A stretch of 63,708 bases of DNA, counting the filler. It is 4 parts of 4 records of this genome, joined end to end, with 100 filler letters (N's around TTAATTAATTAA, not from the genome) between each part and the next. Parts side by side here need not be neighbours in the genome. Positions count along the whole stretch, not along the records: positions 1 to 28,234 come from SRR22947727_46; 3 more parts are not named here. One strand, 5' to 3'. The translations under genes were made by a program, and so were the position numbers. The notes beneath the pieces were generated by a model. It searched no databases. It saw only the letters and a list, made by a program, of their open reading frames with translations, and was not told the origin of the DNA. Positions 14,762-55,870 of the stretch are shown one piece after another; position 1 is the stretch's first letter; each line of letters begins with the position of its first letter.

Positions 14762-16158
14762 AAAAAGTTGTAACAAGATTTGCACCAAGTCCAACAGGAA
14801 CTCTTCATATTGGAGGCTTAAGAACTGCATTATTTAATTATGTATATGCAAAGAAATATAAAGGTTTATTTTTAATTCGTATTGAGGATACTGATAAAGC
14901 AAGATCTACTAAAGAATTTGAAAAAAATATTTTAGAAAGTCTTAAATCAATTGGCCTTTCTCCTGATAAAGATCCAATTAATCAATCTTTAAGAGGGGAT
15001 ATATACAAAGCAGCCGCACAAAAAATTATTGATTCAGGTCAAGCATACTATTGTGATTGTTCAATTGAAAGATTAGATAAGATGCGGGCAGAACAACAAT
15101 CATTAGGTCAAAAACCTCAATATGATGGCAAATGTAGAAATTTAAATCTTAAAAAATCCGATAATACTGTCTTAAGACTAAAAACTCCTCTTGATGGCGA
15201 GGTTGTTGTAAAAGATTATGTTAGAGGAGATATAGTATTTAATAATTCTGAACTGGATGACTTAATAATTTTAAGGAGTGACGGTACTCCCACTTATCAC
15301 TTATGTAATGTTGTAGATGACTTCGAGCAAGGGGTAACAACAGTCATCAGGGGAGAGGATCATATTAGTAACACGCCAAGACAAATTCATATTCAAAATG
15401 CGCTTGAATACCCTAACCTTGAGTATGCTCACTTGCCCTTGGTTCTTGGTCCAGACAAAAAGCGGCTTTCCAAAAGGCATGCTGCAACAAGCCTAGAAGA
15501 GTATAAGTTAGAGGGTTATTTAGACTCAGCTATTTTAAATACTTTGGCAAGATTAGGCTGGTCTCGGGGAGACAAAGAAGTATTTTACATGGAAGATCTC
15601 ATAAGAGATTTTAAAATAACTGAAATTCAAAAAGCTGGAGCTATTTTTGATATTACTAAATTAGATTATTTAAATACTCAGCATTTGGCAAATCTAAATT
15701 TAAATCAACTAATTAAATTTTTAACGCCATTTTTAGAAGAATTAAATATAGATCTTGAGTCTCATGCAAAAAAAGAATTTTTGATAATGTCTATGCGCTC
15801 TTCTGCATCTACATTGAAAGCTATTGCTCAAAATTTAGAATGTTATTTCAAAGATATAAATGAATATGATCAAAAGGCAATAAATAAGTTTCTTGGGGGC
15901 TCATCCAAAATTCTTTCAGATCTTAAGACAAGACTATCTAAAGTCGATGATTGGAATGAAACCACTATAGATAAAATTCTACAAGATTATAGAGAAGAAG
16001 AGGGACTCAAAGTGCCCATGGTCAATCAACCTTTGAGAATTGCCATGACAGGCTCTACCAATTCACCCTCTTTGGGTTTAACACTTTCTTTATTTCATAA
16101 AGATGAAGCTATTAAGAGAATTGATAAGCTTATAAGACTTGTTGAGATAGATAATTAA
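14758..16158 (+). CDS. gltX: Glutamate--tRNA ligase
   Basis: TRFAPSPTG, HIGG, RIEDTD, RGEDH, RLSKR. Probable TTG start at 14758 with GGAGAG RBS. Confidence 0.96.
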   Translation: MKKVVTRFAPSPTGTLHIGGLRTALFNYVYAKKYKGLFLIRIEDTDKARSTKEFEKNILESLKSIGLSPDKDPINQSLRGDIYKAAAQKIIDSGQAYYCDCSIERLDKMRAEQQSLGQKPQYDGKCRNLNLKKSDNTVLRLKTPLDGEVVVKDYVRGDIVFNNSELDDLIILRSDGTPTYHLCNVVDDFEQGVTTVIRGEDHISNTPRQIHIQNALEYPNLEYAHLPLVLGPDKKRLSKRHAATSLEEYKLEGYLDSAILNTLARLGWSRGDKEVFYMEDLIRDFKITEIQKAGAIFDITKLDYLNTQHLANLNLNQLIKFLTPFLEELNIDLESHAKKEFLIMSMRSSASTLKAIAQNLECYFKDINEYDQKAINKFLGGSSKILSDLKTRLSKVDDWNETTIDKILQDYREEEGLKVPMVNQPLRIAMTGSTNSPSLGLTLSLFHKDEAIKRIDKLIRLVEIDN

Positions 16159-17008
16159 AGAAATCGTTGCATTCATTACTAACAATATCTTTTTTAATTG
16201 CATATATTGTGTATAAAAAGTTTTCACCAAGAATATTTGAAATAGTTACTCGTTCTTGATTTGCTTTCTTGCAGGTATTTTCATCTAAGATCGAGATTCC
16301 TAACTTGCTATCAACTAGGGACAAGGCTGAGTTGTAAGAATCTGTTTTTATAATGGTATTGATCATAATATTCTCATTTTTAATATACTCACTAATGCTT
16401 GATTTTTCATAAAATGAAAGCAGGTTTGTTACTTCGATAAAAGGCAGATGAGATATATCTTTTAAATCTATGTCATTACTTAAATGATAAGATTTTGGTG
16501 ATACTAATTTATGCATACCTCTTTTGAGAATAGTAGATGTTGTGTTAGATTGTGGTTTTGAGTTATAGCATATTGTTATGTCTATTTCTGGTTTATATCT
16601 ATCTTCAATCAAATCAATACTGTTTAAGTTAATGAGATTAAATTTAACTTCAGAATTTATTTTATTATATTTTTTTATTATCTGAGGGATAATGCTATCT
16701 GCAAGAGATGGAGTTGTCCCAATATTAATGTAGTCTATAGATCTTGTTTTATAAGTATTAGCTATAGCATTAAAACTCTTTAACTGACTATGAACAATAG
16801 AGGCATGTTCATATAAATCATCTGCCTCGATACTTGGAATTAACTTCTTTCCTTCTCTCAGAAATAACTTGAAATTTAAATTTTTTTCAATAACTCTTAA
16901 TGTTTTACTTACAGAAGGTTGAGAAATCTGCAATCTTTTTGCAGCAGCTGTCATTGAGGAAGTTCTATAAACCTCATAAAAAATTTCTATTTGTTTTGCT
17001 GATAACAT
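16130..17008 (-). CDS. LysR-family transcriptional regulator
   Basis: N-terminal HTH (SMTAAAKRLQISQPSVS...LFLR), 292 aa, divergent from the TonB-dependent receptor. Confidence 0.9.
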   Translation of the reverse strand: MLSAKQIEIFYEVYRTSSMTAAAKRLQISQPSVSKTLRVIEKNLNFKLFLREGKKLIPSIEADDLYEHASIVHSQLKSFNAIANTYKTRSIDYINIGTTPSLADSIIPQIIKKYNKINSEVKFNLINLNSIDLIEDRYKPEIDITICYNSKPQSNTTSTILKRGMHKLVSPKSYHLSNDIDLKDISHLPFIEVTNLLSFYEKSSISEYIKNENIMINTIIKTDSYNSALSLVDSKLGISILDENTCKKANQERVTISNILGENFLYTIYAIKKDIVSNECNDFFNYLSQQVL

Positions 17009-17010
17009 CT

Positions 17011-17025
17011 ATAACCTTTGGTTAT
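17011..17025. promoter_or_regulatory. Putative LysR recognition site
   Basis: Perfect dyad ATAACC-TTT-GGTTAT containing T-N11-A (17012/17024), 2 nt upstream of the lysR start codon, in the divergent intergenic region. Confidence 0.65.
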
Positions 17026-17056
17026 TATTATACTAATATAATAATAAAATTTATGC

Positions 17057-17086
17057 TAGACAAGAAAATGCATAGAGCTATATACT
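17057..17086 (+). promoter_or_regulatory. Putative sigma70 promoter of the TonB-dependent receptor
   Basis: TAGACA (17057-17062), 18-nt spacer, TATACT (17081-17086). Confidence 0.4.
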
Positions 17087-17122
17087 TTGTAAGATTTATT
17101 TAATATATATGGGGAAAATTTC

Positions 17123-20100
17123 ATGTTAAAAAAATTTTTATTTCTATTTCCATTGGTTATAAGTGTTTATTCTTATGCCCAAGAAGTTGAACAAGATGAG
17201 GCTGATGTTGAAGAGGTTGTAACAGTTGGTTCGCAAATTAAAGGTGCTACTATTACTGGACTACTTCCAGTTACTGTAATCACAAGCGAAGAGATAGATC
17301 AAATGGGCATTGAATCAGGCTCTGATTTAATTGAATCAATTATTTCACAGGGTGAAAATACATTAAATGAGGATCAAGATAGCACTGTTTTTAGTGCACG
17401 TGGTGATAACTCTGGCTTTAACTTAAGAAATTTTGGAGTAGGCAATACTTTAACATTGCTTAATGGAAGAAGAATGGTGAATACAGCTGGCTATAATACT
17501 GATTTTGTTGGCGGGTCTGTTGTTCCTGTTAAATCTGTAAATGCAAATGAGATACCTGTTGGAAGTGTCGCAAGAGTTGAGGTTCTAAGAGATGGAGCTT
17601 CTGCTATTTATGGTGCAGACGCAGTAGCTGGTGTGGTTAATACAGTTCTAAGAGATGATTATGATGGATTAACTGTAAGGACTAAATTTACAGCTTTTGA
17701 TCATTTTGCTGAAGAAAACTCTCAATTAAATATCACTTTTGGGAAGGATTTAGCTGATGGCGTCACTAATATTAATGCAAGCTATACATATTATGACGGA
17801 GGAGCTAAATTTGCTCGTGAAGACCCAAGATGGTTGGCTGGTAATGCAATGCTCAATGAATATATTGACTTTTGGAATCTTATACCAGGAGGAGCAGACT
17901 ATTCAGATGATGGTGCATCTAATCCTTATACAAATGCTTCATCGCAAACTCCGTGGGGCAGGTGGATACCATTAGATGGACATGAAACGGCTTGGACGAT
18001 ATACCCTATTGATATAACTGCTTATCCACTCGGTATGTTAGGAACAGATGGTGAACCTTTAATGTATGACAGGAGAAGTAAATGTCAAGAAGTCTCAGCT
18101 ATAGGAATTGGCCCTGATGGAGCTGGAGTTTCTCCTTTAAACTTATGTATTGAAGATTTAACAAGTAGTAATAGAATAAATTGGAATCATGATAGACAAG
18201 CATATTCCTCAAAAGATAGACATAATTTATTTATATATATTAATAGTGAGTTTATGGGATATGAAACTTTTTCAGAAATTGGATATTACACTGCTAAAAA
18301 TACTCGGCAATTATATGGTTCATCAACTCTGGGTACTCTTGCTGTAAGTAAAACTCAGTCTCTTATTATTCCAGAAACCAATCCGTATTTAAGAAAGATA
18401 TTTGATTATTATATGGCTTGCCAAGATGATAGCATCTCTTCAAATTTAAATTATACAACTACACCTGATAACTGTACTTTAGACGGTTCAGGCCCTGATA
18501 ATGGCTCAACATCCTCCGGCGCAGACTTTTTTAATGATAGTTATAGTACTTATGGTCCAATGGCCGCTGGTTATTTTAGATTCCCCAATCTGAGAACAAA
18601 CACTACTGAGCTTGAAACAATAAGACTGCTTCAAGGTATAAGAGGAAGTTTTAATAATTGGGATTGGGAAAGTGCTATTTTATACTCAAAAGCAACTTCA
18701 GATGATTCTACAGATGGAAGAGTTGCAATGGATTTATTAGATTATGGTTTATCAAAAACAGACGAAACTGCAATCAATCTTTTTGCTGGTGGAATGGAGG
18801 GTATGAACCTTGAGCAAGCTTTAATAACTGTAAAGAGATCTCAAGAGACTGCTCTTAGCATGATTGATTTTAAAATGACTAATGCAAATATTGGTGATAT
18901 AGGCGCTGGTCCAATTGCAATGCTGGTTGGTGCAGAGATAAGAAATGAATCCTTTGATGATGACCTTGATGATAGACTTGATGGAACAATTCAATGGTAT
19001 GATCAAACTGTTTGTACTGCTGGAGAAGGTCGTGCATATGATGCAGCTACAAATTCAATTACTTATACAGTTGCACCTGTTTGTAGTTCTGATATAACAC
19101 CAACATATGTAGAAAGAGGTAAAGGTAATAGTGATCAAACTTTCGGATCAGAGGAGGGAACTTTTCCATTTGCTTCTGCCGTAGCAATGTCAAGTCCACA
19201 ACCAGACTCTAGTGGTGACAGAACTACATCTTCTTTGTTTGTTGAATTACAAATACCAGTTTTAGAAAATTTAGATGCACAAGTTGCCATAAGACATGAA
19301 TCATTCTCAGATGTAAATTCTGCAACTGTTGGAAAAATTGCATTGGGTTATTATGTAAATCCAACTCTATCTTTTAGGGGTTCTGCGTCAACCACATATA
19401 GAGCTCCAAATTTAATTACTGTTAATTCTCCATACATTCCTAGAAATAGTAGTTATACAGATGCTCTTGGTTCATATCTTGGAAACGGGTTTGATGTAGG
19501 TGCAATTAATCCAGATACTGGAACATTATATCCCGAGGATGAAGAGCAAGTATATTGGGATATAACTGCTTATAAATTAGCGGCATCAGTCGGCAATCCA
19601 GACCTAGAGTCTGAAGAGGCTGTAAACAAATCATTTGGTTTTATATATACACCATCTGATAATTTAATTATTACTGTCGATAAATGGTCTATAGCTAAAG
19701 AGAAAACTATAGGTATTTTTGGTGCTGAAAATAATTCTGCATATGATTTACTATTAAGACTTGATGGCTCATGTGAGGGTAATTCTGCTGTTATTAGAGG
19801 TAATTCTCCAAGCCAGGCTGAGTGGGATCAATATTTTCCTGATACTAATTTGTGTCCAGCAGGACAAATACTTAGGATTGAAGATCCATTTATGAATCTT
19901 GATGATAGATATATATCAGGTACAGATTTATCTCTATTTTTTGATAAAGAAACAAGTTGGGGTGATTTTGGTTTTAGATATCAATCATCAATATTAGATA
20001 AATTTACTCAAACATCTTCTGGTCCAGCAGCTGAAATTGTTGCAGCTGATGAAGCTGGATTATTTGCAAATACGTCTGTCGATGTTACTGGATTTGAATC

Positions 20101-20506
20101 GCTTTTAGGTGTAAATGCTGTTCATAAGAAAAAAGGTTTTTATTCTTTTAGCTTTAAAAGAGGTGACTATACAACGACTATTAGAACAAATTTTAAAAGT
20201 GGATTTGAATATCCAAGTTCAAGTAAATCTGCTGGCACATCAGGTACATATTGGGAGGAGTGTTATCAATGTGATTCACCTGTAACCTTAACAGATTCTG
20301 TATATTGGCTTCGTGCTATGTCTACAACTGATTTATCAGTAGCCTATAAAACTAAGCTTAAAGGTAATAGATTAAATGCTAGATTTACTGTAAAAAATAT
20401 ATTTGATGAAAGAGCCCCAACTGTTGATAAAACCTATGGTTATTGGATGGGAGCACACAATGACTTTGGTACATACTATAATTTAGATCTTAAATTCATA
20501 TTTTAA
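17123..20506 (+). CDS. TonB-dependent receptor (large, Cys-rich loops)
   Basis: Signal peptide, TonB box EEVVTVGS, plug motifs TLTLLNGRR and RVEVLRDGASAIYGADAVAGVVN, GNPDLESE, KNIFD, C-terminal Phe. Confidence 0.93.
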   Translation: MLKKFLFLFPLVISVYSYAQEVEQDEADVEEVVTVGSQIKGATITGLLPVTVITSEEIDQMGIESGSDLIESIISQGENTLNEDQDSTVFSARGDNSGFNLRNFGVGNTLTLLNGRRMVNTAGYNTDFVGGSVVPVKSVNANEIPVGSVARVEVLRDGASAIYGADAVAGVVNTVLRDDYDGLTVRTKFTAFDHFAEENSQLNITFGKDLADGVTNINASYTYYDGGAKFAREDPRWLAGNAMLNEYIDFWNLIPGGADYSDDGASNPYTNASSQTPWGRWIPLDGHETAWTIYPIDITAYPLGMLGTDGEPLMYDRRSKCQEVSAIGIGPDGAGVSPLNLCIEDLTSSNRINWNHDRQAYSSKDRHNLFIYINSEFMGYETFSEIGYYTAKNTRQLYGSSTLGTLAVSKTQSLIIPETNPYLRKIFDYYMACQDDSISSNLNYTTTPDNCTLDGSGPDNGSTSSGADFFNDSYSTYGPMAAGYFRFPNLRTNTTELETIRLLQGIRGSFNNWDWESAILYSKATSDDSTDGRVAMDLLDYGLSKTDETAINLFAGGMEGMNLEQALITVKRSQETALSMIDFKMTNANIGDIGAGPIAMLVGAEIRNESFDDDLDDRLDGTIQWYDQTVCTAGEGRAYDAATNSITYTVAPVCSSDITPTYVERGKGNSDQTFGSEEGTFPFASAVAMSSPQPDSSGDRTTSSLFVELQIPVLENLDAQVAIRHESFSDVNSATVGKIALGYYVNPTLSFRGSASTTYRAPNLITVNSPYIPRNSSYTDALGSYLGNGFDVGAINPDTGTLYPEDEEQVYWDITAYKLAASVGNPDLESEEAVNKSFGFIYTPSDNLIITVDKWSIAKEKTIGIFGAENNSAYDLLLRLDGSCEGNSAVIRGNSPSQAEWDQYFPDTNLCPAGQILRIEDPFMNLDDRYISGTDLSLFFDKETSWGDFGFRYQSSILDKFTQTSSGPAAEIVAADEAGLFANTSVDVTGFESLLGVNAVHKKKGFYSFSFKRGDYTTTIRTNFKSGFEYPSSSKSAGTSGTYWEECYQCDSPVTLTDSVYWLRAMSTTDLSVAYKTKLKGNRLNARFTVKNIFDERAPTVDKTYGYWMGAHNDFGTYYNLDLKFIF

Positions 20507-20523
20507 GTTTGGTTAATTAATTT

Positions 20524-20554
20524 AAAAAGGGAGTTTTTTGGCTCCCTTTTTTTT
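20524..20554. terminator. Rho-independent terminator after the TonB receptor
   Basis: AAAAAGGGAG-TTTTTTGG-CTCCCTTTTTTTT hairpin. Confidence 0.8.
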
Positions 20555-20571
20555 AAAGGCGGTAAATAAAA

Positions 20572-22008
20572 ATGAACGCATATAGAAAAAAAGGTTTTTT
20601 AATTGGTGTATTTGTTTTTTTGATGCTGTTAATTCTGCCTATTCCAAACGGATTAAATGCTTCCGCATGGTCAGTTGCGGCTGTTGTAACATTAATGGCT
20701 ATTTGGTGGGCAACTGAAGCAATACCAGTTCCTGTTACAGCACTATTGCCATTAGCCTTATTTCCTTTGCTTGATGTAGTTTCCTTTAAAGAGGCTGCAT
20801 TGCCATATGCAAATCCAAATATTTATCTTTTTTTAGGGGGTTTTATGTTAGCTCTTGCTATTGAAAGATCTGGACTACATAAGCGTATGGCACTTCATAT
20901 GATTATTGCTTCTGGGTCAGATGGGTCAAAGCTGATCGGTGGTTTTATGATAGTTGCTGCGTTGATAAGTATGTTTGTAATGAACACATCTACAACATTA
21001 ATGCTTTTACCAATTGGCTTAGCTGTATGTTCTGTTGTAAGCACAACTATTCCTGGTATTAGCTCTTCTGAAACTAAATTTTTTGATACAGCTCTAATGC
21101 TTGGTATTGCTTATGCAGCTACCATTGGTGGGATGTCTACGCTGGTTGGAACTGCCCCAAATATCGTCTTTAGTGCCTTTATGCAAGAAACTTATAATGT
21201 TGAAATTTCAATGTCTGATTGGATGACATTAGGAGTTCCATTAGCTGTCATTATGCTTTTTTCTGCATGGATTGTTTTAACAAAATTTGTATTCCCAACC
21301 TCATTTGTTACAACTAATGAGACTAGAACCTATTTAAAAGAAATGCTCTTAGACTTGGGACCTCTTTCAAAAGATGAGATTAAAATTTCTATTATTTTTG
21401 CATTAACGGCACTTGCATGGATCACAAGATCTATTATAGATAACTATGAGATGCTTAGTGGATTAACTGATGCGGGAATAGCTATTATCTCTGCTATTTT
21501 ATTATTTATTATACCTTCATCCTCTCATAAGGGTGAGCTCTTAAATTGGGAAAAGAGCAATGAGCTGCCATGGGGCCTCTTAATTTTATTTGGAGGAGGG
21601 CTTTCTATTGCTGCTCAAATTAATTCAAGTGGTCTAGGGGTATGGATTGGAGAGAGCCTAAGTGTTTTGGGATCAGTTCCTCCAATATTCTTAATCTTAG
21701 CAGTAGCAGCATTGATTATTTTCTTAACTGAAATAACAAGCAATGTTGCAACTACCTCAACCTTTTTACCTGTTTTTGGAGCAGTTGCAGCAGGTATTGG
21801 AGTATTGCCAGTTTCGCTTACTGTTCCAGTGTGCTTGGCTGCAAGTTGTGCATTCATGCTACCGGTAGCAACTCCTCCAAATGCTATAGTTTATGGTTCT
21901 GGTAAATTTACAATAGCAACAATGATGAAAGCAGGATTTTTATTAAATATTATTGGTATCTTTGTAGTAACTTTGTTTGCTTACTTTATAGCTCCACAAG
22001 TTTTTTAA
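20572..22008 (+). CDS. DASS/SLC13-family sodium:anion (di/tricarboxylate or sulfate) symporter
   Basis: WWATEAIP, LFLGGF, GLHKR, GTAPN, WGLLILFGGG, TEITSNVAT, FMLPVATPPNAIV; multi-TM. Confidence 0.92.
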   Translation: MNAYRKKGFLIGVFVFLMLLILPIPNGLNASAWSVAAVVTLMAIWWATEAIPVPVTALLPLALFPLLDVVSFKEAALPYANPNIYLFLGGFMLALAIERSGLHKRMALHMIIASGSDGSKLIGGFMIVAALISMFVMNTSTTLMLLPIGLAVCSVVSTTIPGISSSETKFFDTALMLGIAYAATIGGMSTLVGTAPNIVFSAFMQETYNVEISMSDWMTLGVPLAVIMLFSAWIVLTKFVFPTSFVTTNETRTYLKEMLLDLGPLSKDEIKISIIFALTALAWITRSIIDNYEMLSGLTDAGIAIISAILLFIIPSSSHKGELLNWEKSNELPWGLLILFGGGLSIAAQINSSGLGVWIGESLSVLGSVPPIFLILAVAALIIFLTEITSNVATTSTFLPVFGAVAAGIGVLPVSLTVPVCLAASCAFMLPVATPPNAIVYGSGKFTIATMMKAGFLLNIIGIFVVTLFAYFIAPQVF

Positions 22009-23756
22009 TGCATGCTTTGAAATTTTGTCTAATATTTTTTCTTTGTTTATTAGTTGAATCTAGAAGTTATATAGATTACGAGTCACCTTATCATCCAGTC
22101 GTTGGAACAGAAGGCATGGTTGTTACTCAAAACTATTTATCATCTGAAATTGGAATTGAAATTTTAAATAAAGGAGGAAATGCAATTGATGCTGCTGTAG
22201 CCGTTGGTTTTTCCCTAGCAGCTACTCTTCCAAGAGCAGGTAACTTAGGCGGTGGTGGCTTCATGCTAGTTTACATTAAAAAAAATGATGAAATTTTTTT
22301 TATAGATTATCGCAGCTCATCTCCTCTTAACTCAAATTTAGAAAATATATTCAATCTGATAACTGATACAAATACTAAATTAGAATTATTGCCAAATAGT
22401 TTTGATAAAAATAAGTATGAACTTGTTAATACTGGTTACAAAGCGCCTGCAGTACCAGGAACTGTTGCAGGTTTGCTTGAAGCACATAAACAATTTGGAA
22501 AACTTACACTAGAAGAAATTTTACAACCTGTTATCAAGCAAGCGACTAATGGAGTCCCAGTTACCTATGATTTACATAAAGCAATTGAAAGCACTCCTAG
22601 ATTAAAATCTGATCATGAATCAAGAAAAATTTACTTTAAAGATAACAAACCATTAAGAGAAAGTTCAATTTTTATAGTACCTGGTTTGGCAAAAACAATT
22701 TCTTTAATTGCTAAAAATGGTAGAGATGGTTTTTATAAAGGTGAAACCGCAGATAAGATTATTACAGCAATGAATAATAATGGCGGATTATTTTCAGAGA
22801 AGGATTTAATAAATTATAAACCCTATACAAGAAAGCCAATCTCAGTAAATTATCGAGGTAATAAAGTTTATACAGCCGGACCACCTTCTGGAGGTGGTAT
22901 TACTCTTTTAACAGCCTTAAGAATTTTAGAACAATTTGATTTATCTAAACATGAAAGCAATTCAAGTACGACATATCATCTTATTTCAGAGGCAATCAGA
23001 AGAGGTCATAATAATAGATCTAGTGAAGTTGGTGACCCACTTTTTTACAATGTACCTGTAAACGAATTGCTCTCTAAAGACAGAATAAAGGAGTTATCTC
23101 AAAGCATCAGCTTAAAGAAAGCTAGCAAAGCTTCAATAATCAAACCTCTTAAGGTTATTAATGAAAGTAGAGATACAACTCACTACTCTATAATAGATTC
23201 TGATGGTAATGCTGTATCTAATACTTATACTCTTGGTGCATCATTTGGTTCAGGTGTAACAATTCCCGACACTGGTATTTTAATGAATAATCAAATGAAT
23301 AATTTAGTATATCAATCAGGAGATGTTACAAAAGTAGGGAGGAGGGTGAGTCCAGGAAATAAATTTCAACCCGGTAAAAGACCTATGAGCACTATGGCAC
23401 CTGTAATGGTGTTTAATAAAAATAATCAATTATCTTTAATCACCGGCTCCCCTGGTGGTTCTTACATACCTGCTGCTATATTAAGAGTAGTTTCTGGTGT
23501 AATTGATTTTAATTTGCAGATAGGCGACGCGACAATGCTACCGAGAGTTCATAAGGATTGGCCATATATTGGGCTAGATTATGAAAAAGCTATTAGCTCA
23601 GATGTTTTGTTCAAATTAAATAAAATTGGTCATAAAACAGAGGCAAACAAGACAATGGGAAGTACCCAAAGTATTCATATTGTTGACGAGATAAGATATG
23701 GTTTTGCTGATTTAAGAAGGCCAAATTCTGGTGTTGTAAAGCAACTTAATAATTAA
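22008..23756 (+). CDS. Gamma-glutamyltransferase-family Ntn amidohydrolase with an atypical donor site
   Basis: GGNAIDAAVA, GGGGFM, DYR, VPGTVAG, PPSGGG, autocleavage TTHYS (Thr390), GSPGG, DLRR; hydrophobic N-terminus. Alpha-amino-binding residues are substituted (see findings), so ggt is not assigned. Confidence 0.9.
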   Translation: MHALKFCLIFFLCLLVESRSYIDYESPYHPVVGTEGMVVTQNYLSSEIGIEILNKGGNAIDAAVAVGFSLAATLPRAGNLGGGGFMLVYIKKNDEIFFIDYRSSSPLNSNLENIFNLITDTNTKLELLPNSFDKNKYELVNTGYKAPAVPGTVAGLLEAHKQFGKLTLEEILQPVIKQATNGVPVTYDLHKAIESTPRLKSDHESRKIYFKDNKPLRESSIFIVPGLAKTISLIAKNGRDGFYKGETADKIITAMNNNGGLFSEKDLINYKPYTRKPISVNYRGNKVYTAGPPSGGGITLLTALRILEQFDLSKHESNSSTTYHLISEAIRRGHNNRSSEVGDPLFYNVPVNELLSKDRIKELSQSISLKKASKASIIKPLKVINESRDTTHYSIIDSDGNAVSNTYTLGASFGSGVTIPDTGILMNNQMNNLVYQSGDVTKVGRRVSPGNKFQPGKRPMSTMAPVMVFNKNNQLSLITGSPGGSYIPAAILRVVSGVIDFNLQIGDATMLPRVHKDWPYIGLDYEKAISSDVLFKLNKIGHKTEANKTMGSTQSIHIVDEIRYGFADLRRPNSGVVKQLNN

Positions 23757-23757
23757 T

Positions 23758-24546
23758 TTAGGTTTCTATTTCGTTCAAAGGCATTGCTGCAATATTGAAT
23801 CCTGCGTCAACATAAGTAATTTCACCTGTAATGCCACTTGCATAATCAGAGCATAAAAATGCTGCAGTGTTTCCAACTTCCTCTGTTGTTACTGTTCTAC
23901 CTAAAGGTGCTCTATCTGAATGCTGGGAAAGCATCTTTCTAAAATTTTTAACTCCTGATGCAGCAAGAGTTTTTATTGGTCCGGCTGATATAGCATTTAC
24001 TCTAACTCCATCTCTGCCCATAGATGCAGCTAAAAATCTTGTATTAGCCTCTAAACTTGCTTTTGCTAGCCCCATAACGTTGTAGTTCGGCATTGTCTGA
24101 ACAGAGCCTAAATAAGATAATGTTAAAAGAGCAGAAGATTCATTTAATAAAGGCTTTGCTGCTTTAGCTAATGCAGTAAAACTATATGAGCTTATTTCGT
24201 GAGCAGTATTAAAACCTTCCCTTGTTGTTACATCTACAAAATTACCCTCTAACTGATCAGCTGGAGCAAAACCAATCGAATGAACCAAACCATCAAACGT
24301 TACCCAATTTTGTTGAACAAATTCAAAGCATTTAGATATTGATTGATCGTTGGCGACATCACACTCAATTAAAAGCTCAATACCAAGATCATCAGCTATG
24401 GGTTTAATATTTTTTAAAAGTCTTTCATTTTGATAGGCAAGAGCAATAGTTGCTCCTTGAGCAATCATACTCTTTGCTATACCAGCTGCAATTGAATATT
24501 TATTAGCAAGACCAAAGATAATAATTTTTTTATTTTTTAATAACAT
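23758..24546 (-). CDS. fabI: Enoyl-ACP reductase FabI
   Basis: GLANKYSIA, VHSIGFAP, YNVMGLAKASLE, NAISAGPIKTLAA. Start taken at ATG 24546. Confidence 0.96.
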   Translation of the reverse strand: MLLKNKKIIIFGLANKYSIAAGIAKSMIAQGATIALAYQNERLLKNIKPIADDLGIELLIECDVANDQSISKCFEFVQQNWVTFDGLVHSIGFAPADQLEGNFVDVTTREGFNTAHEISSYSFTALAKAAKPLLNESSALLTLSYLGSVQTMPNYNVMGLAKASLEANTRFLAASMGRDGVRVNAISAGPIKTLAASGVKNFRKMLSQHSDRAPLGRTVTTEEVGNTAAFLCSDYASGITGEITYVDAGFNIAAMPLNEIET

Positions 24547-24697: not shown

Positions 24698-27600
24698 ATG
24701 AAAAATAAAATGAATAAAATTTTTGCATTGGTGCTTTTTTCTTCAGTAATGTTTGCGCAAGATGTTGAGGAAGTGGTAGAGGAAAATGCGGCTGATGAAA
24801 ATATCGAAGAGGTTGTAACAACTGGTTCAAGGATTGCCAGAGATCCGTTAGAGTCGGCACAACCAATCACAATATTAGAAGGCGATATGATTAGGAATAT
24901 GGGTCTAACAGCAGCTTCTGCTTTAACAGACCTTCCTGAGATTGACTCAGTAGCCTCAATTTCTGGTGATCAATCATCATTAGGGGCTGGACAATCTGTT
25001 GCATCAAATTTTGGTCTTAATTCCTCTAGAACTGTTACTTTGGTAAACGGAAGAAGATTTGTAGGATCATCTGGAATATCTTCAGGTGGTGGATCAGGTG
25101 GTGCTGTTAACTTAGCTAATGTTCCAACAGCTCTAATTGAAAGAATAGAGGTTGTGCCAGTTGGTGGTGCAGCTATTTACGGTGCTGACGCTATTGCTGG
25201 TGTGGTTAACTATGTACTAAAAGATGATTTTGAAGGTGCCGAGTTAATGATTGATAGATATGACTATAACGGTCTTGAAGATGATCTTGGTTTTGATTTA
25301 ACAATAGGTGGAAACTTTGCTGATGGCAGAGGAAATATTATTTTGAATGCTGCCATTGAAAGCAGGGATACAGTTCATGTGGAACAAGCAAATAGCAGAT
25401 ATAAAGATTGTCTACATGGTGGCTTTTACAAACTTGCTGCTGATACTGGGCAATCACAATTCTTTGGTTATGGTGATTATTACCCACAAGAAGTTGAGGC
25501 AACGAGAGGAGCTGAGTATCAAAACGAGGATGGTTGGCTGCCAATGGGTGTAGATGGTCATATGTGTAGCACACTAACATCTAATCCTGTTGAAGGTCTT
25601 GTTGCTGCGTATGGAGATAATGAAATTGGATCTGTTGGTGCATTCTGGAATGGAAACTTAAATGGTTCTGGAACTGCTCCAGCATGGTATAGATGGGGAG
25701 CACCTGGTCAGCTTGTACCATTTTTCCCCGGGACTCCTACAGAAACCACGGGTGCCTACTATACTGTTGGAGCTGATATTAAGAGAATTAATACCGACAA
25801 TATATTAAGAGCAGGTTATGAGAAGAAAAATATTTCAGTTTTCTTAAAATATGATATCAATGATAATACAGAATTTTTCTTTGATGTTTATCAAAATAAT
25901 TATTATGCAAGTGATACTGGTGAAGATTCTGGAGCTCATTATTCAGATTACTGGTTTGGTACTGCAGACAGTGATAATTGTACCTCTGATGGAGATGCAG
26001 CTGCATGGTCTATCAAAGATACTAATTGTTGGTCTTCATCTACTTCAATACCTGTTTTTACAGATGATCCTTTTTTAACTGCAGACTCTGTTGCAATTCT
26101 TGAGGCTGAAGGATTTGGTCCTAAGTATGGTGCTAATGGAGCATTGTGTGATGGAGAGCCATGTGGAACTCCAGCAATGATGCAAAAACTTTGGAAAGAT
26201 TTATCACCAGGTGGAAGAGGCGATCAATTTGAAGATAGAGCTAAAACTCAGTTTTATTCAATGGGCTTAACTGGTAATTTTGATATGTTTGATAAGAACT
26301 ATTCATACGAAGTTGGTTATAGTGAAGGTGAAACAAGAACTGATTCAACCTCTCCTGCAATCATTGCTGCAAGATTTATGGCTGCATTAGATTATAAAAT
26401 TAATCCAGATACAGGAGAAATTGATTGTAGATATAATTTTGATAATACTGTTGATTTACCCGCTTATATAGTTCCAGGTGGAGATTACTCCAATCTTGGT
26501 GGCGGTGTTGGCCTGGGTGCTACAGGTAGTTGTGTTCCATTAAATCCATGGGGTTATGACGTTGCAGCTAATGCAGATGCTTTAGATTATATGTCATCTT
26601 ATGGAAAAGAAGGAGCAACAATAACTCAGGAATCTACTTTTGCTTCAATGGCAGGAACTCTTGTTGATTTGCCTGCAGGACCATTAGAGTTTGTTGTTGG
26701 TTTTGACAACCGTAAAGAAGCTGCTAAATATGAAGCTGACCAACTTACTAAGTTTTATGTTGGCTTAAGAGGATCTGCTGTTTTAGATGGAAGTGGTGAG
26801 TATGAAGTGGAATCTCAATATTTTGAAATATCTGTTCCTGTTATATCAGGTATTCCTTATGTTCAAGATTTAAGGTTCGACTATGGTTATCGTGAAATTG
26901 ATAATAAAAACTCAGTTGGTTCAAGGTCATATGATGTTAGTGCTTTGAGTGTATTTTGGAGAGTTAATGATCAGCTTGCAGTAAGAGCTTCAGATCAAAC
27001 AACAACTAAGGCTCCAACAATTGATCAGCTTTTTGCGCCACTTAACCCAAGTTTTGAGCAAGCTAATGATCCTTGTGATGCAAGATATATTACCGATGGT
27101 GATAATCCTGCAAACAGAGCAGCAAATTGTGCTGCAGCAGGAATTACACAACCATTTTCTAGTTTTGTAGCTGGTGGAACGGTACAAGGTAAAGACGGTG
27201 GTAATAGATTCTTAGTTGATGAGAATGCAGAGACTTTCTCTTTAGGAGTTGTATATACGCCTAATTTCGATTTCATGGATCGTGTTGGTAATGTCTCTTT
27301 AACAGCTGATTATGTTGAAATCAACCTTAAAGATTACGTAACTACTTTTGATCTAGAAGACTTTATGGTTGCTTGTTATGATGCCGCAACTTATCCAAAT
27401 ACTTTTTGTAATAATTTTGAAAGATCTTCAGATGGCAATGTTATAGACTTTGAAACTGGTCCTGGTAACTCAGGTATCATTGACTTTGCAACCTATATTT
27501 ATAAATTAAATTGGAACAAAGAATATAGCTTTGGAGAATTATCTCTTAACTGGAGAGCAATGCAGCAAAAAGAAAGACTTGAAGCTGATTCAGGGGATCC

Positions 27601-27973
27601 TGCTGATTTAATAGATTCAACAGGTGATGCATCTAACCCAGAATGGACTCAAGATTTAACTCTTGGCTATTCTAAGGGTAAGCATTATGCATACTATAAA
27701 GCTGATTTTGTAGCTAGTGGATATATTGATAAAGTTGAAACTGATACTAGAGCAGATAAATACTTAGATAGAGCTGGCAATCCAATAACTGAATATGATG
27801 GATATTGGTTTGATACTGTTGGCTATGTATATGAGCATAATGATAATCTTCAATTTATAGTAAAAGTTAATAACCCTCTTGACCATGATGGTAGCGAAAG
27901 TAGGTACCAAGAAGAGAGAGCAGTTAGGTTACTTGGAAGAAGTATAACGACTTCTCTATATTATAAATTCTAA
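24698..27973 (+). CDS. TonB-dependent receptor (large, Cys-rich loops)
   Basis: Signal peptide, TonB box EEVVTTGSRI, RTVTLVNGRR, IERIEVVPVGGAAIYGADAIAGVVN, DPC...NC motif, C-terminal YKF. Confidence 0.93.
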   Translation: MKNKMNKIFALVLFSSVMFAQDVEEVVEENAADENIEEVVTTGSRIARDPLESAQPITILEGDMIRNMGLTAASALTDLPEIDSVASISGDQSSLGAGQSVASNFGLNSSRTVTLVNGRRFVGSSGISSGGGSGGAVNLANVPTALIERIEVVPVGGAAIYGADAIAGVVNYVLKDDFEGAELMIDRYDYNGLEDDLGFDLTIGGNFADGRGNIILNAAIESRDTVHVEQANSRYKDCLHGGFYKLAADTGQSQFFGYGDYYPQEVEATRGAEYQNEDGWLPMGVDGHMCSTLTSNPVEGLVAAYGDNEIGSVGAFWNGNLNGSGTAPAWYRWGAPGQLVPFFPGTPTETTGAYYTVGADIKRINTDNILRAGYEKKNISVFLKYDINDNTEFFFDVYQNNYYASDTGEDSGAHYSDYWFGTADSDNCTSDGDAAAWSIKDTNCWSSSTSIPVFTDDPFLTADSVAILEAEGFGPKYGANGALCDGEPCGTPAMMQKLWKDLSPGGRGDQFEDRAKTQFYSMGLTGNFDMFDKNYSYEVGYSEGETRTDSTSPAIIAARFMAALDYKINPDTGEIDCRYNFDNTVDLPAYIVPGGDYSNLGGGVGLGATGSCVPLNPWGYDVAANADALDYMSSYGKEGATITQESTFASMAGTLVDLPAGPLEFVVGFDNRKEAAKYEADQLTKFYVGLRGSAVLDGSGEYEVESQYFEISVPVISGIPYVQDLRFDYGYREIDNKNSVGSRSYDVSALSVFWRVNDQLAVRASDQTTTKAPTIDQLFAPLNPSFEQANDPCDARYITDGDNPANRAANCAAAGITQPFSSFVAGGTVQGKDGGNRFLVDENAETFSLGVVYTPNFDFMDRVGNVSLTADYVEINLKDYVTTFDLEDFMVACYDAATYPNTFCNNFERSSDGNVIDFETGPGNSGIIDFATYIYKLNWNKEYSFGELSLNWRAMQQKERLEADSGDPADLIDSTGDASNPEWTQDLTLGYSKGKHYAYYKADFVASGYIDKVETDTRADKYLDRAGNPITEYDGYWFDTVGYVYEHNDNLQFIVKVNNPLDHDGSESRYQEERAVRLLGRSITTSLYYKF

Positions 27974-30422: not shown

Positions 30423-30449
30423 AACATAACTAATCCTCTTTTGTTAAAA

Positions 30450-31877
30450 ATGAAAAATATCTTTTTTTTAATTTCATTTTTAATAATTTTCAGTTGTAAC
30501 AACCCCTCTCATTTTTCAAAATTAGACCGTCCTAATATTATTTTAATTAATGTAGATGACCTTGGCTGGAAAGACTTGGGATTTATGGGCAGTCAATATT
30601 ATGAAACTCCTTTTTTAGATCAATTTGCAAAACAGGGTATAGTATTTACAAACGCCTATGCTAGTGCAGCAAATTGCGCTCCTAGCAGAGCCTCATTATT
30701 TTCAGGTCTTAATACACCAAGGCATGGCGTTTACACAGTTGGATCCTCAAAAAGAGGAGACAAAAGAACTAGAAAACTAGTTCCTGCAAAAAACAAAAAA
30801 TATTTAAACGATAGTATTTACACCTTGCCTGAAATGTTAAAGTCAGCAGGTTATGTTACTGCGAATTTTGGAAAATGGCACATAGGTAAAGATCCTAAAA
30901 CACAGGGTATAGATCATAACATTGGGGGAAGTAATAAAGGGAATCCTGGAAAAGACGGTTACTTTTCACCATATAAAATTGATTATATTAAAAATGAAAA
31001 GCCTGGAGAATATTTAACAGACAGGTTAACTAACGAAGCTGTTGATTTTATTTTAAAAAATGCAGGCTCACCCTTTTTTGCTAATCTTTCATTTTACTCA
31101 GTTCACACCCCTATTCAAGGAAAAAAAAGTTGGATAAAAAAATATGCTTCAAAAAATGGTATAAATGGTCAAGACAACCCTGAGTACGCAGCAATGGTAA
31201 GTTCTGTTGATGAAAATATTGGTAAAATTTTAAAAACGTTAGATGATTTAAAAATTGCTGAAAACACTTTAGTAGTTTTCACATCTGATAATGGAGGAAT
31301 TCGCTCAATTTCAAATCAATACCCGCTAAAAGCAGGAAAAGGAAGTTACTATGAAGGGGGAATTCGCGTTCCATTTGTTTTAAGATGGCCAAAAAAAATA
31401 TTTTCTGGAGTTAACAATAACAACATAAGTAATCTTGACATATATCCTACTATTCAAGATATTATAGATCCCAAAAATAAAGCCTTAACTCTTGATGGTG
31501 TAAGCTTAAAAAATCAATTTAAAGTTCCTTCAAAAATAAATAGAGATTTGTTTTTTCATTTCCCTATTTATCTAGAAGCTTATAATAAATTAGAAGACCA
31601 GGGCAGAGATCCATTATTTAGAACTAGACCTGGGTCAGTCATAATTTCAGGAAAATGGAAGCTTCATCATTATTTTGAAGATGAAGGTTTAGAACTATAT
31701 GACTTAAGTCAAGATATTGGAGAATCTAATAATTTAGCTGAACTCAAACCTAATATCTCGAAAAAACTTCTAAATAAATTAAATGATTGGAGAGAAAAGT
31801 CTAATGCTATAATTCCTAATGAAATAAATAAAGAATACGATAACTTTTTTGAAAAAAAATTAATGAATCAAAATTAA
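30450..31877 (+). CDS. Formylglycine-dependent (S1, Cys-type) sulfatase, lipoprotein
   Basis: Lipobox IFSC, PNIILINVDDLG, CAPSRASLFSG (CxPxR), GKWHIG, SDNGG, YEGGIRVP. Confidence 0.93.
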   Translation: MKNIFFLISFLIIFSCNNPSHFSKLDRPNIILINVDDLGWKDLGFMGSQYYETPFLDQFAKQGIVFTNAYASAANCAPSRASLFSGLNTPRHGVYTVGSSKRGDKRTRKLVPAKNKKYLNDSIYTLPEMLKSAGYVTANFGKWHIGKDPKTQGIDHNIGGSNKGNPGKDGYFSPYKIDYIKNEKPGEYLTDRLTNEAVDFILKNAGSPFFANLSFYSVHTPIQGKKSWIKKYASKNGINGQDNPEYAAMVSSVDENIGKILKTLDDLKIAENTLVVFTSDNGGIRSISNQYPLKAGKGSYYEGGIRVPFVLRWPKKIFSGVNNNNISNLDIYPTIQDIIDPKNKALTLDGVSLKNQFKVPSKINRDLFFHFPIYLEAYNKLEDQGRDPLFRTRPGSVIISGKWKLHHYFEDEGLELYDLSQDIGESNNLAELKPNISKKLLNKLNDWREKSNAIIPNEINKEYDNFFEKKLMNQN

Positions 31878-34582: not shown

Positions 34583-35635
34583 ATGAAAAAAATATTTGAA
34601 AACTTAATGGAAAACAAAAACTTTAAACTGATTTTGATTTTTGGAGTTGTAAAAAAGATTATACTTATTCTATTATTAACTTTTCCGTTCTACTCTAATG
34701 GACAATCAAACCCGTACTCTGACAAATTTGCGCACACTTATTCAATAGTTGCAAAGGATGCCAATACAGGAGAAATGGCGGTAGGAGTACAAAGTCATTG
34801 GTTTTCAGTTGGAACACTTGTTAGTTGGGGTAAATCTGGTGTTGGTGTTGTAGCTACTCAATCGTTTGTTAATCCAAGTTATGGCCCTAATGGAATCGAA
34901 CTTATGGAAAATGGCGTATCTGCTAAAGAAGTACTAAAAAAATTAACTGACCAAGACGAAGGAAAAGATTTTAGACAAGCTGCAATGCTTGACGTTAATG
35001 GATCGGTAAGCGCATTTACTGGTGAAAAATGTATTGAAAGCGCAGGACATTTTGTTGGAGAAAATTTTTCCGTTCAAGCCAATATGATGTTAAATGATAA
35101 AGTTATTCCTGCAATGAAAAAAGCATTTCAAGATAATTCCAGCTTACCCTTAGCAGAAAGAATTATTAAAGTATTTGAAGCTGCTGAAAGTGTTGGAGGA
35201 GATATAAGAGGGAAGCAATCTGCAGCACTAATAGTTGTAGGGGCTGAAAAAACTTCTAATGTTTGGGAGGATAAAAAAATTGATCTTAGAGTAGACGACA
35301 ACAGCAATCCAATAAAAGAAATTAAAAGACTTTTAAAAGTTCACAGAGCCTACGAGCACATGAACAGAGGAGATCTTGCTATTGAAGAAAACGATATGGA
35401 TAAGGCTTTAAGCGAGTATGGAAAAGCTCAAGTTTTATTTCCTGAAAATCATGAAATGAGTTTTTGGAAAGCAATAGCGCTTTTAAACAATGGTAAAAAA
35501 GATGCAGCTAAACCAATTTTAAAAAGAGTTTTTAAAGAAAATTCCAATTGGAAAAAGTTAATTTATAGATTACCGAAATCAGGGCTTATTTTAATGAAAA
35601 CCAAAGAACTAGATTCTTATTTAAATAATTTATAA
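34583..35635 (+). CDS. DUF1028 (Ntn-hydrolase-like) protein with C-terminal TPR
   Basis: TYSIVAKD, GVGVVATQ, QANMM, GGDIRGKQSAAL, DLRVDD, helical TPR tail. Confidence 0.82.
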   Translation: MKKIFENLMENKNFKLILIFGVVKKIILILLLTFPFYSNGQSNPYSDKFAHTYSIVAKDANTGEMAVGVQSHWFSVGTLVSWGKSGVGVVATQSFVNPSYGPNGIELMENGVSAKEVLKKLTDQDEGKDFRQAAMLDVNGSVSAFTGEKCIESAGHFVGENFSVQANMMLNDKVIPAMKKAFQDNSSLPLAERIIKVFEAAESVGGDIRGKQSAALIVVGAEKTSNVWEDKKIDLRVDDNSNPIKEIKRLLKVHRAYEHMNRGDLAIEENDMDKALSEYGKAQVLFPENHEMSFWKAIALLNNGKKDAAKPILKRVFKENSNWKKLIYRLPKSGLILMKTKELDSYLNNL

Positions 35636-41196: not shown

Positions 41197-42060
41197 AAAA
41201 TTTTTGATAATATTTGGATTCAACCTGCTGCCGGTGACGCAGGAGGTTCATTGGGTTCTGCTTTAGCTTTGTGGCATGTAGAGCAAGGCAATAAAAGAGA
41301 AGTTAATTTGAAAGACAATATGAAAGGATCATATTTAGGACCCGAATATTCTCAAGATCAAATTGAAAGTGAATTAAAAAAAATTGGAGCTAGATTTAAT
41401 ATATTCAATTATGAAGAGTTAATTGATCAAACAGCAAATTATTTATCTCAAGAAAATGCTATTGGTTGGTTTCAAGGGAGAATGGAATTTGGACCAAGAG
41501 CTTTGGGAGGTAGATCAATTTTAGGTGATCCAAGATCAGAAAAAATGCAAAAAAATTTAAACTTAAAAGTCAAATATAGAGAAAGTTTTCGCCCATTTGC
41601 CCCATCAATTTTGAGAGAAGATTTATCTCATTGGTTTGATATAAATGTTGATAGTCCTTATATGCTCTTGGTAGCTAATATTAAGTCTGAAAAAAAAATA
41701 GAAATGACTGAGCAACAAAAAAAACTTTTTGGTATTGATAAATTGAACATTAAAAGATCAGAAATACCTGCAGTTACTCATGTTGATTACTCTGCCAGAT
41801 TACAGACTGTTACTAAAGATAATAATAAATATTATTATGATTTAATTTCTAAATTTAAGGAGAAAACAGGTTGTCCTGTTATCGTTAACACATCTTTCAA
41901 TGTTCGTGGTGAGCCTATTGTTAATACTCCAAAAGATGCATTTAATTGTTTTATGGGTACCGAATTAGATTTTCTTATTATAGGAAATTGTATTTTAGAC
42001 AAAAAAGATCAAGATATAAATCTTAAAAAAGATTATTCAAACGAGTTTGAATTAGATTAA
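41197..42060 (+). CDS. O-carbamoyltransferase (NodU/CmcH family), C-terminal part (5'-truncated)
   Basis: Open frame from the contig edge: QPAAGDAGG, GRMEFGPRALG.RS, KYRESFRPFAP, HVDYSARLQTV, NTSFNVRGEP. Confidence 0.92.
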   Translation, partial: KIFDNIWIQPAAGDAGGSLGSALALWHVEQGNKREVNLKDNMKGSYLGPEYSQDQIESELKKIGARFNIFNYEELIDQTANYLSQENAIGWFQGRMEFGPRALGGRSILGDPRSEKMQKNLNLKVKYRESFRPFAPSILREDLSHWFDINVDSPYMLLVANIKSEKKIEMTEQQKKLFGIDKLNIKRSEIPAVTHVDYSARLQTVTKDNNKYYYDLISKFKEKTGCPVIVNTSFNVRGEPIVNTPKDAFNCFMGTELDFLIIGNCILDKKDQDINLKKDYSNEFELD

Positions 42061-42139
42061 ATTTATATATTTAATTTATGATATATTACTTTAAAAAATT
42101 ATTAAAAAAAGTATTTATAAATTTAAAATTTAAAATTAA

Positions 42140-51221: not shown

Positions 51222-51274
51222 TAATTATGAATTATTTTATAAAGTAAATCTAATATTTTAGTAAATATGGAGAA

Positions 51275-52165: not shown

Positions 52166-52278
52166 TTTATTTATGTAGTATGCATATACTATAAGCAATT
52201 ATTATTTTAAAATAATTTTGATAAAATTTTTTTTTAAACATTATTAATTAAAAAATTTGCCATGATAGATAGATTCAA

Positions 52279-53343: not shown

Positions 53344-53369
53344 AAATGTATAGAAATTTATTTAAAAAA

Positions 53370-55758: not shown

Positions 55759-55769
55759 TGAACATTAAA

Positions 55770-55869: not shown

Positions 55870-55870
55870 T

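Follow-up and report, generated by a model that had tools for sequence, protein, structure and literature searches.

The gamma-glutamyltransferase (GGT) of Escherichia coli, Ggt (2DBU, 2DBX, 2E0W), has a donor site in which the alpha-carboxylate is held by Arg114, Ser462 and Ser463 and the alpha-amino group by a cradle of Asn411, Gln430 and Asp433. Published work has shown that the D433N replacement in the E. coli enzyme (EcGGT) abolishes transpeptidation, leaves about 82% of the hydrolysis and brings glutaryl-7-aminocephalosporanic acid (glutaryl-7-ACA, GL-7-ACA) acylase activity, which increases 50-fold when Y444A/G484A is added (PMC8062742). The replacement was inspired by the class IV cephalosporin acylases, which possess a natural Asn at 433 and are described as favouring GGT substrates (PMC8062742), and the D406N mutant of the Pseudomonas nitroreducens enzyme (PnGGT) is a broad glutaryl and sulfobutanoyl amidase (PMC11421214). 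In Helicobacter bilis, a natural paralogue, Bgh1, combines Asp-to-Asn, Ser-to-Thr and Tyr-to-His changes with an oxyanion Gly-to-Ser change and is reported to be unprocessed and without GGT activity, with no GL-7-ACA activity in H. bilis (PMC3279353). In the SAR86 bacteria, which lack assimilatory sulfate reduction, ggt genes have been taken as a means of drawing cysteine from glutathione, with paralogues unseparated (PMC3358033, PMC11582366). Here, we describe a gene from a stretch of 63,708 nucleotides (the window; four parts joined end to end, of which positions 1 to 28,234 come from SRR22947727_46) that encodes a GGT-family protein of 582 amino acids (aa) with an altered donor pocket, belonging to a SAR86 clade whose genes lie beside a TonB-dependent receptor and a symporter. 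On balance, we favour the reading that it is a functional secreted GGT-family N-terminal nucleophile (Ntn) amidohydrolase for gamma-glutamyl-type acyl groups that lack a free alpha-ammonium.

Several comparisons place the protein in the GGT family. It scores 480 bits against PF01019 (cut-off 27) and 481.7 bits against TIGR00066 (cut-off 357.85), while its 436.1 bits against NF007187, the equivalog for the E. coli-type Ggt, fall below the cut-off of 990. The top phmmer match among PDB sequences is the E. coli GGT precursor 2e0w (E 3.8e-113), and identity to E. coli Ggt amounts to 36-38%. The AlphaFold2 (AF2) model, computed from a 90-row alignment, exhibits the GGT fold with a mean pLDDT of 93.6, and its best Foldseek match is also 2e0w, with a TM-score of 0.94 on the target. 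The putative signal peptide aligns ahead of the mature start of E. coli GGT. Among relatives, the ESM Atlas returned only 'glutathione hydrolase proenzyme' clusters, and the protein clusters are all generically called 'gamma-glutamyltransferase'. Comparison with CapD revealed distant kinship only (3g9k, E 1.7e-38 for its large chain and 2.3e-8 for its small chain); a CapD-type poly-gamma-glutamate transpeptidase/depolymerase identity was considered and rejected, E. coli GGT being far nearer.

The pocket residues were assigned by alignment to E. coli GGT. The HMMER alignment to 2e0w runs without a gap across residues 390-469, and a MAFFT alignment with the annotated E. coli K-12 Ggt record gives an identical register. 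The Ntn catalytic set is present, with Thr390 equivalent to the nucleophile Thr391, Thr408 to Thr409, and the GSPGG motif (480-484) carrying Gly483-Gly484. The alpha-carboxylate site is similarly present, Arg102 being equivalent to Arg114 and Ser461 to Ser462, with a conservative change to Thr (Thr462) at Ser463. The alpha-amino cradle, by contrast, is lost: Gly410 replaces Asn411 and Asn432 replaces Asp433, leaving only Gln429 (Gln430) of the three ligands, and the adjacent Asp432 has become Asn431. The aromatic lid residue, Tyr or Phe444 in canonical enzymes, is Val443. Every residue pairing listed in the initial annotation, including codon positions, is thus upheld by both alignments, and with it the retention of the catalytic and carboxylate-site residues and the loss of two of the three amine ligands and the lid Tyr; the codons of Arg102 and of GSPGG lie beyond the interval 23175-23400 to which the feature had been assigned. 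Its description of Gln430 as retained is correct with respect to E. coli but not to the family, in which Glu occupies this position in 105 of 119 canonical GGTs (a comparison set chosen for N411 and D433). Because canonical GGTs mostly have Glu430, the Gln of the SAR86 clade represents one further negative charge lost.

A search of 5.8 billion proteins listed 120 relatives at 73-99% identity, and G411, N432, N433 and T463 (E. coli numbering) are found in all 121 sequences when the query is counted. Together with open reading frames (ORFs) from 71 genome loci, these relatives gave a clade set of 181 distinct sequences, 55-99% identical, in which G411, Q430, N432, N433 and T463 are invariant, as are R114, T409, S462, G483 and G484, with T391 in 180 of the 181. 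Position 432 is Asp in 109 of the 119 canonical GGTs. At position 444, the six commonest residues in the clade are Glu (79), Met (47), Arg (16), Ile (13), Lys (11) and Val (7), and none is aromatic, whereas the canonical set has Phe in 56, Tyr in 55 and Trp in 2; an Arg equivalent to Leu446 is invariant across the clade. Altogether, 21 positions are fixed in the clade for a residue different from that of the canonical GGTs. Seven of these are known positions of the donor site or of the lid (411, 430, 432, 433, 446, 461 and 463), and the others mostly lose negative or gain positive charge (D336N, Y359R, Q493R, H516K). Over the segment that corresponds to E. coli 434-458, the median net charge is +4 in the clade and +1 in canonical GGTs. 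Pairwise dN/dS against seven orthologues is 0.08-0.21, with dS saturated.

To judge from these alignments, the pocket pattern is not chance, and the pocket is one that was rebuilt and then held constant. It would keep its anchor for a terminal carboxylate, through Arg102, Ser461 and Thr462, while the anionic Asn/Asp cradle and the Tyr gate for a free alpha-ammonium are gone. Given the Gly, the two Asn, the Gln and the invariant lid Arg, the site is predicted to be both roomier and more basic. The positions of these residues, and of the neighbouring features discussed below, are collected in Table 1.

Table 1. Features of the GGT-family gene and its neighbours in the window. Residue equivalents are those of E. 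coli GGT, and counts refer to the SAR86 clade set.
Feature	Position	Strand	Basis
GGT-family Ntn hydrolase proenzyme, altered donor pocket, 582 aa	22008..23756	+	PF01019, TIGR00066, AF2/Foldseek
Predicted Sec signal peptide, residues 1-20, MHALKFCLIFFLCLLVESRS	22008..22067	+	By inspection: basic n-region, hydrophobic core
Arg102 (Arg114), alpha-carboxylate ligand	22311..22313	+	Alignment; invariant 181/181
Thr390 (Thr391), nucleophile and predicted autoprocessing site (cut before it)	23175..23177	+	Alignment; T 180/181
Gly410, replacing Asn411	23235..23237	+	Alignment; G 181/181
Asn431-Asn432, replacing Asp432-Asp433 (Asn432 codon 23301-23303)	23298..23303	+	Alignment; N, N 181/181
Lid loop, residues 437-448, without aromatic gate residue; invariant Arg445 (Leu446)	23316..23351	+	Clade alignment
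Val443 (Tyr444) codon	23334-23336	+	Alignment
Ser461-Thr462 (Ser462-Ser463)	23388..23393	+	Alignment; S, T 181/181
GSPGG, oxyanion-hole glycines 483/484	23445..23459	+	Alignment; G, G 181/181
LysR-family regulator, divergent from receptor gene	16130..17008	-	PF00126 and PF03466
TonB-dependent receptor, 1127 aa, divergent member of the GGT-associated receptor type	17123..20506	+	Plug and barrel domains
12-bp hairpin followed by a U run, terminator- or attenuator-like, between receptor and symporter genes	20524..20551	+	RNA fold -16 kcal/mol, z -2.0
DASS (SLC13-type) sodium-coupled anion symporter	20572..22008	+	PF00939 258 bits; TIGR00785 290 bits (cut-off 198.6)

Relatives are encoded by 73 loci in genomes sampled at one per species, 71 of them close (54-99% identity). 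Most of the close loci are labelled SAR86, some only Gammaproteobacteria, and a few Woeseia or other; the nearest, at 99%, is in a SAR86 single-cell genome (L002). Five related SAR86 genomes of about 1.3 Mb were checked for paralogues, and each contains two or three PF01019 matches. In all five, a canonical GGT (N411, E430, D432, D433, F444, S462, S463) exists beside the variant, which is therefore a diverged paralogue rather than a product of decay. Purifying selection and the presence of this canonical paralogue together make changed donor specificity the natural reading. Four of the five genomes also have a third, very divergent copy. In the three whose sequence was examined (L080, L081 and L083, from G004, G003 and G002), it is 559-565 aa long with a signal-like N-terminus, and Arg114 is replaced by Ser, Asn411 by Tyr and Ser462-Ser463 by His-Thr. 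Three GGT-family genes in a 1.3-Mb genome is an unusual number.

In a 163-row FastTree phylogeny, the SAR86 variants group in one clade (local support 100). The enclosing clade of 27 rows (local support 99) comprises 23 G411/N433, three S411/N433 and one G411/I433 sequences, takes in Sphingomonas and other Pseudomonadota, and adjoins the E. coli GGT. The canonical GGTs of SAR86 lie far from the variant clade, which is thus a separate subfamily of old origin rather than a recent duplicate. The G411/N433/T463 combination arises a second time in a lid-less clade (P0205, P0255). Among the tree rows, N433 is accompanied by T463 in 25 of 28 and by Gly or Ser at 411 in 28 of 28; the coupling of N433 with T463, G/S411, a non-aromatic 444 and a non-Asp432 amounts to just two or three independent pairs on the tree, too few to give a statistical test of it any power.

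A 10-row profile of the subfamily, searched against 401 Pseudomonadota genomes, was not discriminating, as its top loci were mostly canonical GGTs, and G411/N433 was found in only two of the 29 loci examined (one row, L091, being a wrong ORF). A single-protein search gave 28 examined loci, namely 23 canonical GGTs and five variants. The G411/N433 subfamily is rare in this Pseudomonadota sample, which was screened in part.

With respect to enzymes already described, the SAR86 protein shares with E. coli Ggt the fold, signal peptide, Thr nucleophile, Thr409, Arg114, Ser462, Gly-Gly oxyanion hole and lid loop, but differs in N411G, D432N/D433N, S463T, the non-aromatic residue at 444 and L446R; furthermore, the E. 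coli locus is stand-alone, whereas the SAR86 variant lies in a receptor-symporter cluster. It resembles the engineered EcGGT D433N (with or without Y444A/G484A) and PnGGT D406N ('GGTxe') in Asn433 and in the lost lid Tyr, yet adds Gly411, Asn432, Thr463 and Arg446 and retains Gly484. The class IV acylase of Pseudomonas sp. SE83 (P15557) is similar in that Asn is described at its Asp433 position (PMC8062742, PMC3279353). Bgh1 is likewise a second GGT beside a canonical copy, with the same Asp-to-Asn and Ser-to-Thr changes and a lost lid Tyr (PMC3279353), but unlike Bgh1, with its oxyanion Gly-to-Ser change, the SAR86 protein keeps all catalytic residues. In the available portion of Verma 2015, TXN, TXS/E and SXY/F clades are distinguished and no TXG/Asn433 clade was found, and literature searches on class IV cephalosporin acylases, SAR86 TonB-dependent glutamyl uptake and GGT paralogues with TonB returned no description of the subfamily or the locus. 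Natural Asn433 is already known; the G411/N432/N433/T463/R446 clade and its receptor-linked locus were not found described in the literature searched.

The gene neighbourhood was compared across 72 related loci, the window included; counts are lower bounds, as a contig edge cuts many of these loci short. A receptor gene occurs in 65 of them and the DASS symporter in 62, the latter being directly upstream in 45 on the same strand and in 12 on the opposite one. Among the further genes, that of a secreted M20D amidohydrolase (TIGR01891, 257 bits) occurs in 48 loci, an SDF carrier in 13 and a secreted 285-aa esterase-like protein in 10, while a LysR homologue was detected in 30, a number bounded by flank length. 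No M20D gene adjoins the GGT gene in the window, in L002 or in a further relative, L003. The order LysR-receptor-DASS-GGT is a conserved cluster, often with a secreted M20D gene. A comparison may be drawn with E. coli abgABT, which serves p-aminobenzoyl-glutamate utilisation and in which an M20D-type amidohydrolase acting on N-aroyl-glutamate is coupled to an importer, much as a secreted M20D protein accompanies relatives of the SAR86 locus; to our knowledge, abg includes neither a GGT-family enzyme nor a TonB-dependent receptor. The abg enzymes are cytoplasmic, and the window locus differs further in having no M20D gene.

In the window, the DASS stop codon and the GGT ATG share one nucleotide. 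The receptor shares 37% identity over 1168 aa with its syntenic SAR86 counterpart in L005 and 27-30% over 809-1170 aa with the receptors that accompany variant GGTs in L073, L120, L149 and L151, while the match to an unrelated receptor, encoded at 24698..27973, is confined to about 220 aa (the plug). Same-slot SAR86 receptors, including those of the closest relatives L002 and L003, are just 32-37% identical to it, whereas for the adjoining DASS the identity is 80-83%. To judge from these identities, the window receptor is a replaced or fast-diverging allele. It exists in nature, since contigs from RNA libraries match it at 95% or more. The block 21872-23771, from the last 135 or so bases of DASS to past the GGT stop, is 96-100% identical in DNA to L002, and its flanks are just 60-86% identical; this points to either recent recombination of the GGT gene alone between diverged SAR86 lineages or a chimeric assembly.

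Outside SAR86, six variant loci were examined, of which five have Asn433 (L073, L119, L120, L149 and L150) and one is G411/T433 (L151). A TonB-dependent receptor lies within about 5 kb in five of the six, all but L150, and four of these five (not that of L119) are full-length relatives of the SAR86 receptor, with 35-47% mutual identity over the full length and 30-33% to the common SAR86 receptor. A carrier for glutamate, dicarboxylates or amino acids is found in four of the six (SDF in L073 and L149, GltS in L119, a permease in L120), as is a second amidohydrolase (Amidohydro_3 in L119, L120 and L149, M20D in L151). The M20D proteins of SAR86 and L151 are 57% identical, and the three Amidohydro_3 proteins share 49-57% mutual identity. 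The best model for the latter, below its cut-off, is PRK09061, named 'amidohydrolase family protein', which we take to be the N-acyl-D-glutamate deacylase group. L119 (G048:C34) also encodes, at 14928-18001, a D-amino-acid dehydrogenase homologue (333 bits, under the cut-off of 383), a LysR regulator and a D-amino-acid aldolase-fold protein, beside the N433-type GGT, the receptor and a second GGT paralogue, with GltS and the secreted Amidohydro_3 protein on the other side.

Esterase-like partners occur in the same setting. L120 encodes a GDSL esterase, and the P0134 cluster (24 members, Steroidobacteraceae by their names) consists of N433-type GGTs of 859 aa with a C-terminal domain of 284 aa (576-859). 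This domain and the free 285-aa SAR86 protein are homologues, with 32-33% identity and E-values of 1e-36 to 1e-39 against a small database. The 285-aa protein matches a PHB-depolymerase-family esterase model weakly (E 2.5e-6, below cut-off). In L066 (3688-4545), it has GHGAG where the P0134 domain has GHSAG, so that Gly seems to stand where an alpha/beta hydrolase usually has its nucleophile Ser. The N-terminal 'extension' of a 797-aa ORF in L098 was considered as a further domain and discarded, since the genome is GC-rich and the ORF appears to have been called too long.

Contigs from the metatranscriptome libraries of three studies match the window at 95% or more over the receptor, the DASS gene, the DASS-GGT junction and the GGT gene. 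Two contig records span position 22008, by 34 and 48 bases, and much of the GGT gene is covered by one run, with parts lacking cover in runs X1, X2 and X6. In X1, the summed word depth reaches 71-95 along the receptor gene but about 7 along DASS; the corresponding values in X6 are 30-41 and 0-5. The change (20290-20560) falls at the hairpin, and the contig of a third run ends at 20553; since contig depth cannot rank genes, this drop is no more than a hint of attenuation.

What the analysis shows are the residues and their conservation, the paralogy, the synteny and the fold, whereas secretion, autoprocessing, catalysis, the class of substrate and the order of steps in the favoured reading are inferred. 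The D433N EcGGT and D406N PnGGT precedents for glutaryl-amide hydrolysis are counted in its support (PMC8062742, PMC11421214). The proenzyme would be exported and would cleave itself before Thr390. The steps might then run in the following order: the dedicated TonB-dependent receptor would import the substrate to the periplasm, the GGT variant would cleave the gamma-amide, a secreted N-acyl-amino-acid amidohydrolase would, in most relatives, complete the breakdown, and the acidic products would be taken up via the DASS symporter, or via SDF or GltS in relatives, with the LysR regulator presumably controlling the gene set. As to the donor, an N-acylated gamma-glutamyl group is put forward tentatively, favoured because of the types of partner amidohydrolase, the glutamate-type carriers in relatives and the room that Gly would provide at 411. 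The amino-free donor of the initial annotation is accordingly one option among others, as the gene context, with its N-acyl-amino-acid amidohydrolase and glutamate-type carriers, suits an N-blocked glutamyl substrate at least as well.

A number of points weigh against this reading. The receptor gene is set apart from DASS-GGT by the terminator-like hairpin, so that it may not be co-transcribed with them; a consensus terminator scan does not list the hairpin. An M20D gene is absent not only from the window's own locus but from the whole 63.7 kb. The RNA-library contigs may include DNA carry-over and give no strand, ends or level, and the tree is unrooted, with local supports in place of bootstraps. 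Furthermore, EcGGT D433N keeps about 82% of hydrolysis, so that D433N alone does not imply loss of gamma-glutamyl hydrolysis (PMC8062742), and Bgh1, a natural paralogue with the Asp-to-Asn, Ser-to-Thr and lid Tyr changes, is reported to be unprocessed and inactive (PMC3279353), albeit with an oxyanion Gly-to-Ser change that the SAR86 protein does not have.

Closest to the initial annotation, which had proposed a natural version of the engineered glutaryl-7-ACA acylase, is the alternative of a natural glutaryl-amide acylase, equivalent to D433N/Y444A GGT and to class IV cephalosporin acylase, for substrates without an alpha-amino group (glutaryl or 2-oxoglutaryl amides), the dicarboxylate being imported by DASS. 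Asn433 and the loss of the lid Tyr do match the engineered enzymes (PMC8062742), and PnGGT D406N hydrolyses many glutaryl and sulfobutanoyl amides (PMC11421214). The site is more basic, and a di/tricarboxylate-type DASS gene is translationally coupled to the GGT gene and lies directly upstream in 45 of the 72 loci. In addition, the esterase-like partners (the P0134 fusion, 10 of the 72 SAR86 loci and the GDSL protein of L120) would suit polycarboxylates containing both ester and amide bonds. Yet an amino-free chain does not need the room created by Asn411-to-Gly, and the secreted N-acyl-amino-acid amidohydrolases and SDF/GltS carriers of related loci indicate glutamate as an end product. No Fur box with three or fewer mismatches lies near the receptor gene (the only such match is at 54850, and in an AT-rich genome the search is a weak one), which argues weakly against a siderophore substrate, and H. 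bilis expressing Bgh1 is reported without GL-7-ACA activity (PMC3279353). We regard this alternative as plausible but less likely. Of the earlier proposal, the residue changes stand, and selection and paralogy speak for a changed donor specificity; against it are that Asn433 is not new, that Bgh1 is inactive and that D433N keeps hydrolysis.

Somewhat less probable still is an ordinary gamma-glutamyl or glutathione hydrolase, perhaps limited to hydrolysis, that would yield cysteine from dissolved glutathione, possibly oxidised or metal-bound and imported by the receptor. The TIGR00066 equivalog cut-off is exceeded, and oxidised glutathione is above the usual porin size limit. The hydrolysis retained by EcGGT D433N (PMC8062742) and the lack of assimilatory sulfate reduction in SAR86, where ggt is taken as the glutathione route (PMC3358033, PMC11582366), also agree with such an activity. 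However, all five streamlined 1.3-Mb genomes also have a canonical GGT in which the amine triad is complete, and a redundant copy would be unlikely to remain under purifying selection with five invariant pocket changes. Asp432 is missing along with two of the three amine ligands, the charge of the pocket has been reversed, and the cluster contains no sulfur-related gene. Least probable, to the point of being hard to sustain, is a non-catalytic or unprocessed GGT-like protein, at most a periplasmic binding protein. Bgh1, which shares the Asp-to-Asn, Ser-to-Thr and lid Tyr changes and is described as unprocessed and inactive (PMC3279353), provides the model for it, but Bgh1 carries the oxyanion Gly-to-Ser change, whereas Thr391, Thr409, Gly-Gly, Arg114 and Ser462 are kept in 180-181 of the 181 SAR86 sequences down to 55% identity, and dN/dS is low (0.08-0.21). 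Weighed against these alternatives, a secreted amidohydrolase for gamma-glutamyl-type groups without a free alpha-ammonium remains the reading we favour.

Elsewhere in the window, the region from about 42000 to 56000 has a low GC content (21-26%, compared with 30-36% in the remainder) and is densely filled with genes of the sugar-nucleotide and glycosyltransferase kinds (DegT aminotransferase, C-methyltransferase, epimerases, GT2, GT1, EpsG), which gives it the look of a surface-polysaccharide island. A DUF1028 protein (34583-35635, 231 bits) and a sulfatase (30441-31877, 209 bits) are encoded downstream, in window coordinates, of the second long TonB-dependent receptor (24698..27973), and are candidates for further scavenging genes.

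A more specific, and speculative, form of the favoured reading is that the G411/N433 subfamily comprises a new periplasmic gamma-glutamyl endopeptidase that would cut N-blocked gamma-(D)-glutamyl bonds in the abundant organic nitrogen of the sea. Such bonds might include L-Ala-gamma-D-Glu-/-mDAP (cut at the slash) of peptidoglycan fragments or, with the same reserve, the internal bonds of gamma-linked polyglutamyl chains. The dedicated receptor would import these substrates, and the partner N-acyl-amino-acid amidohydrolase would free glutamate for uptake. The loss of the ammonium cradle together with N411G, the M20D and Amidohydro_3 partners, the SDF and GltS carriers and the D-amino-acid genes of L119 all hint in this direction. 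SAR86 belong to the surface ocean's most abundant bacteria, and if this possibility were true, part of what is considered glutathione use in SAR86 would instead be a different route for scavenging nitrogen and carbon.

The SAR86 variant, one GGT paralogue out of three in a genome of 1.3 Mb, has a conserved charge-reversed pocket and a link to a receptor and an importer; it probably serves another class of dissolved organic matter, and the module recurs across classes in other Pseudomonadota. In the published work found, biocatalysis with glutaryl or N-acyl-glutamyl amides makes use of engineered point mutants only, and the subfamily constitutes a pool of natural Asn433 GGT scaffolds that may be useful for this purpose. 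Biochemical characterization of one member would serve to annotate the entire subfamily, for which the present label is 'gamma-glutamyltransferase'.

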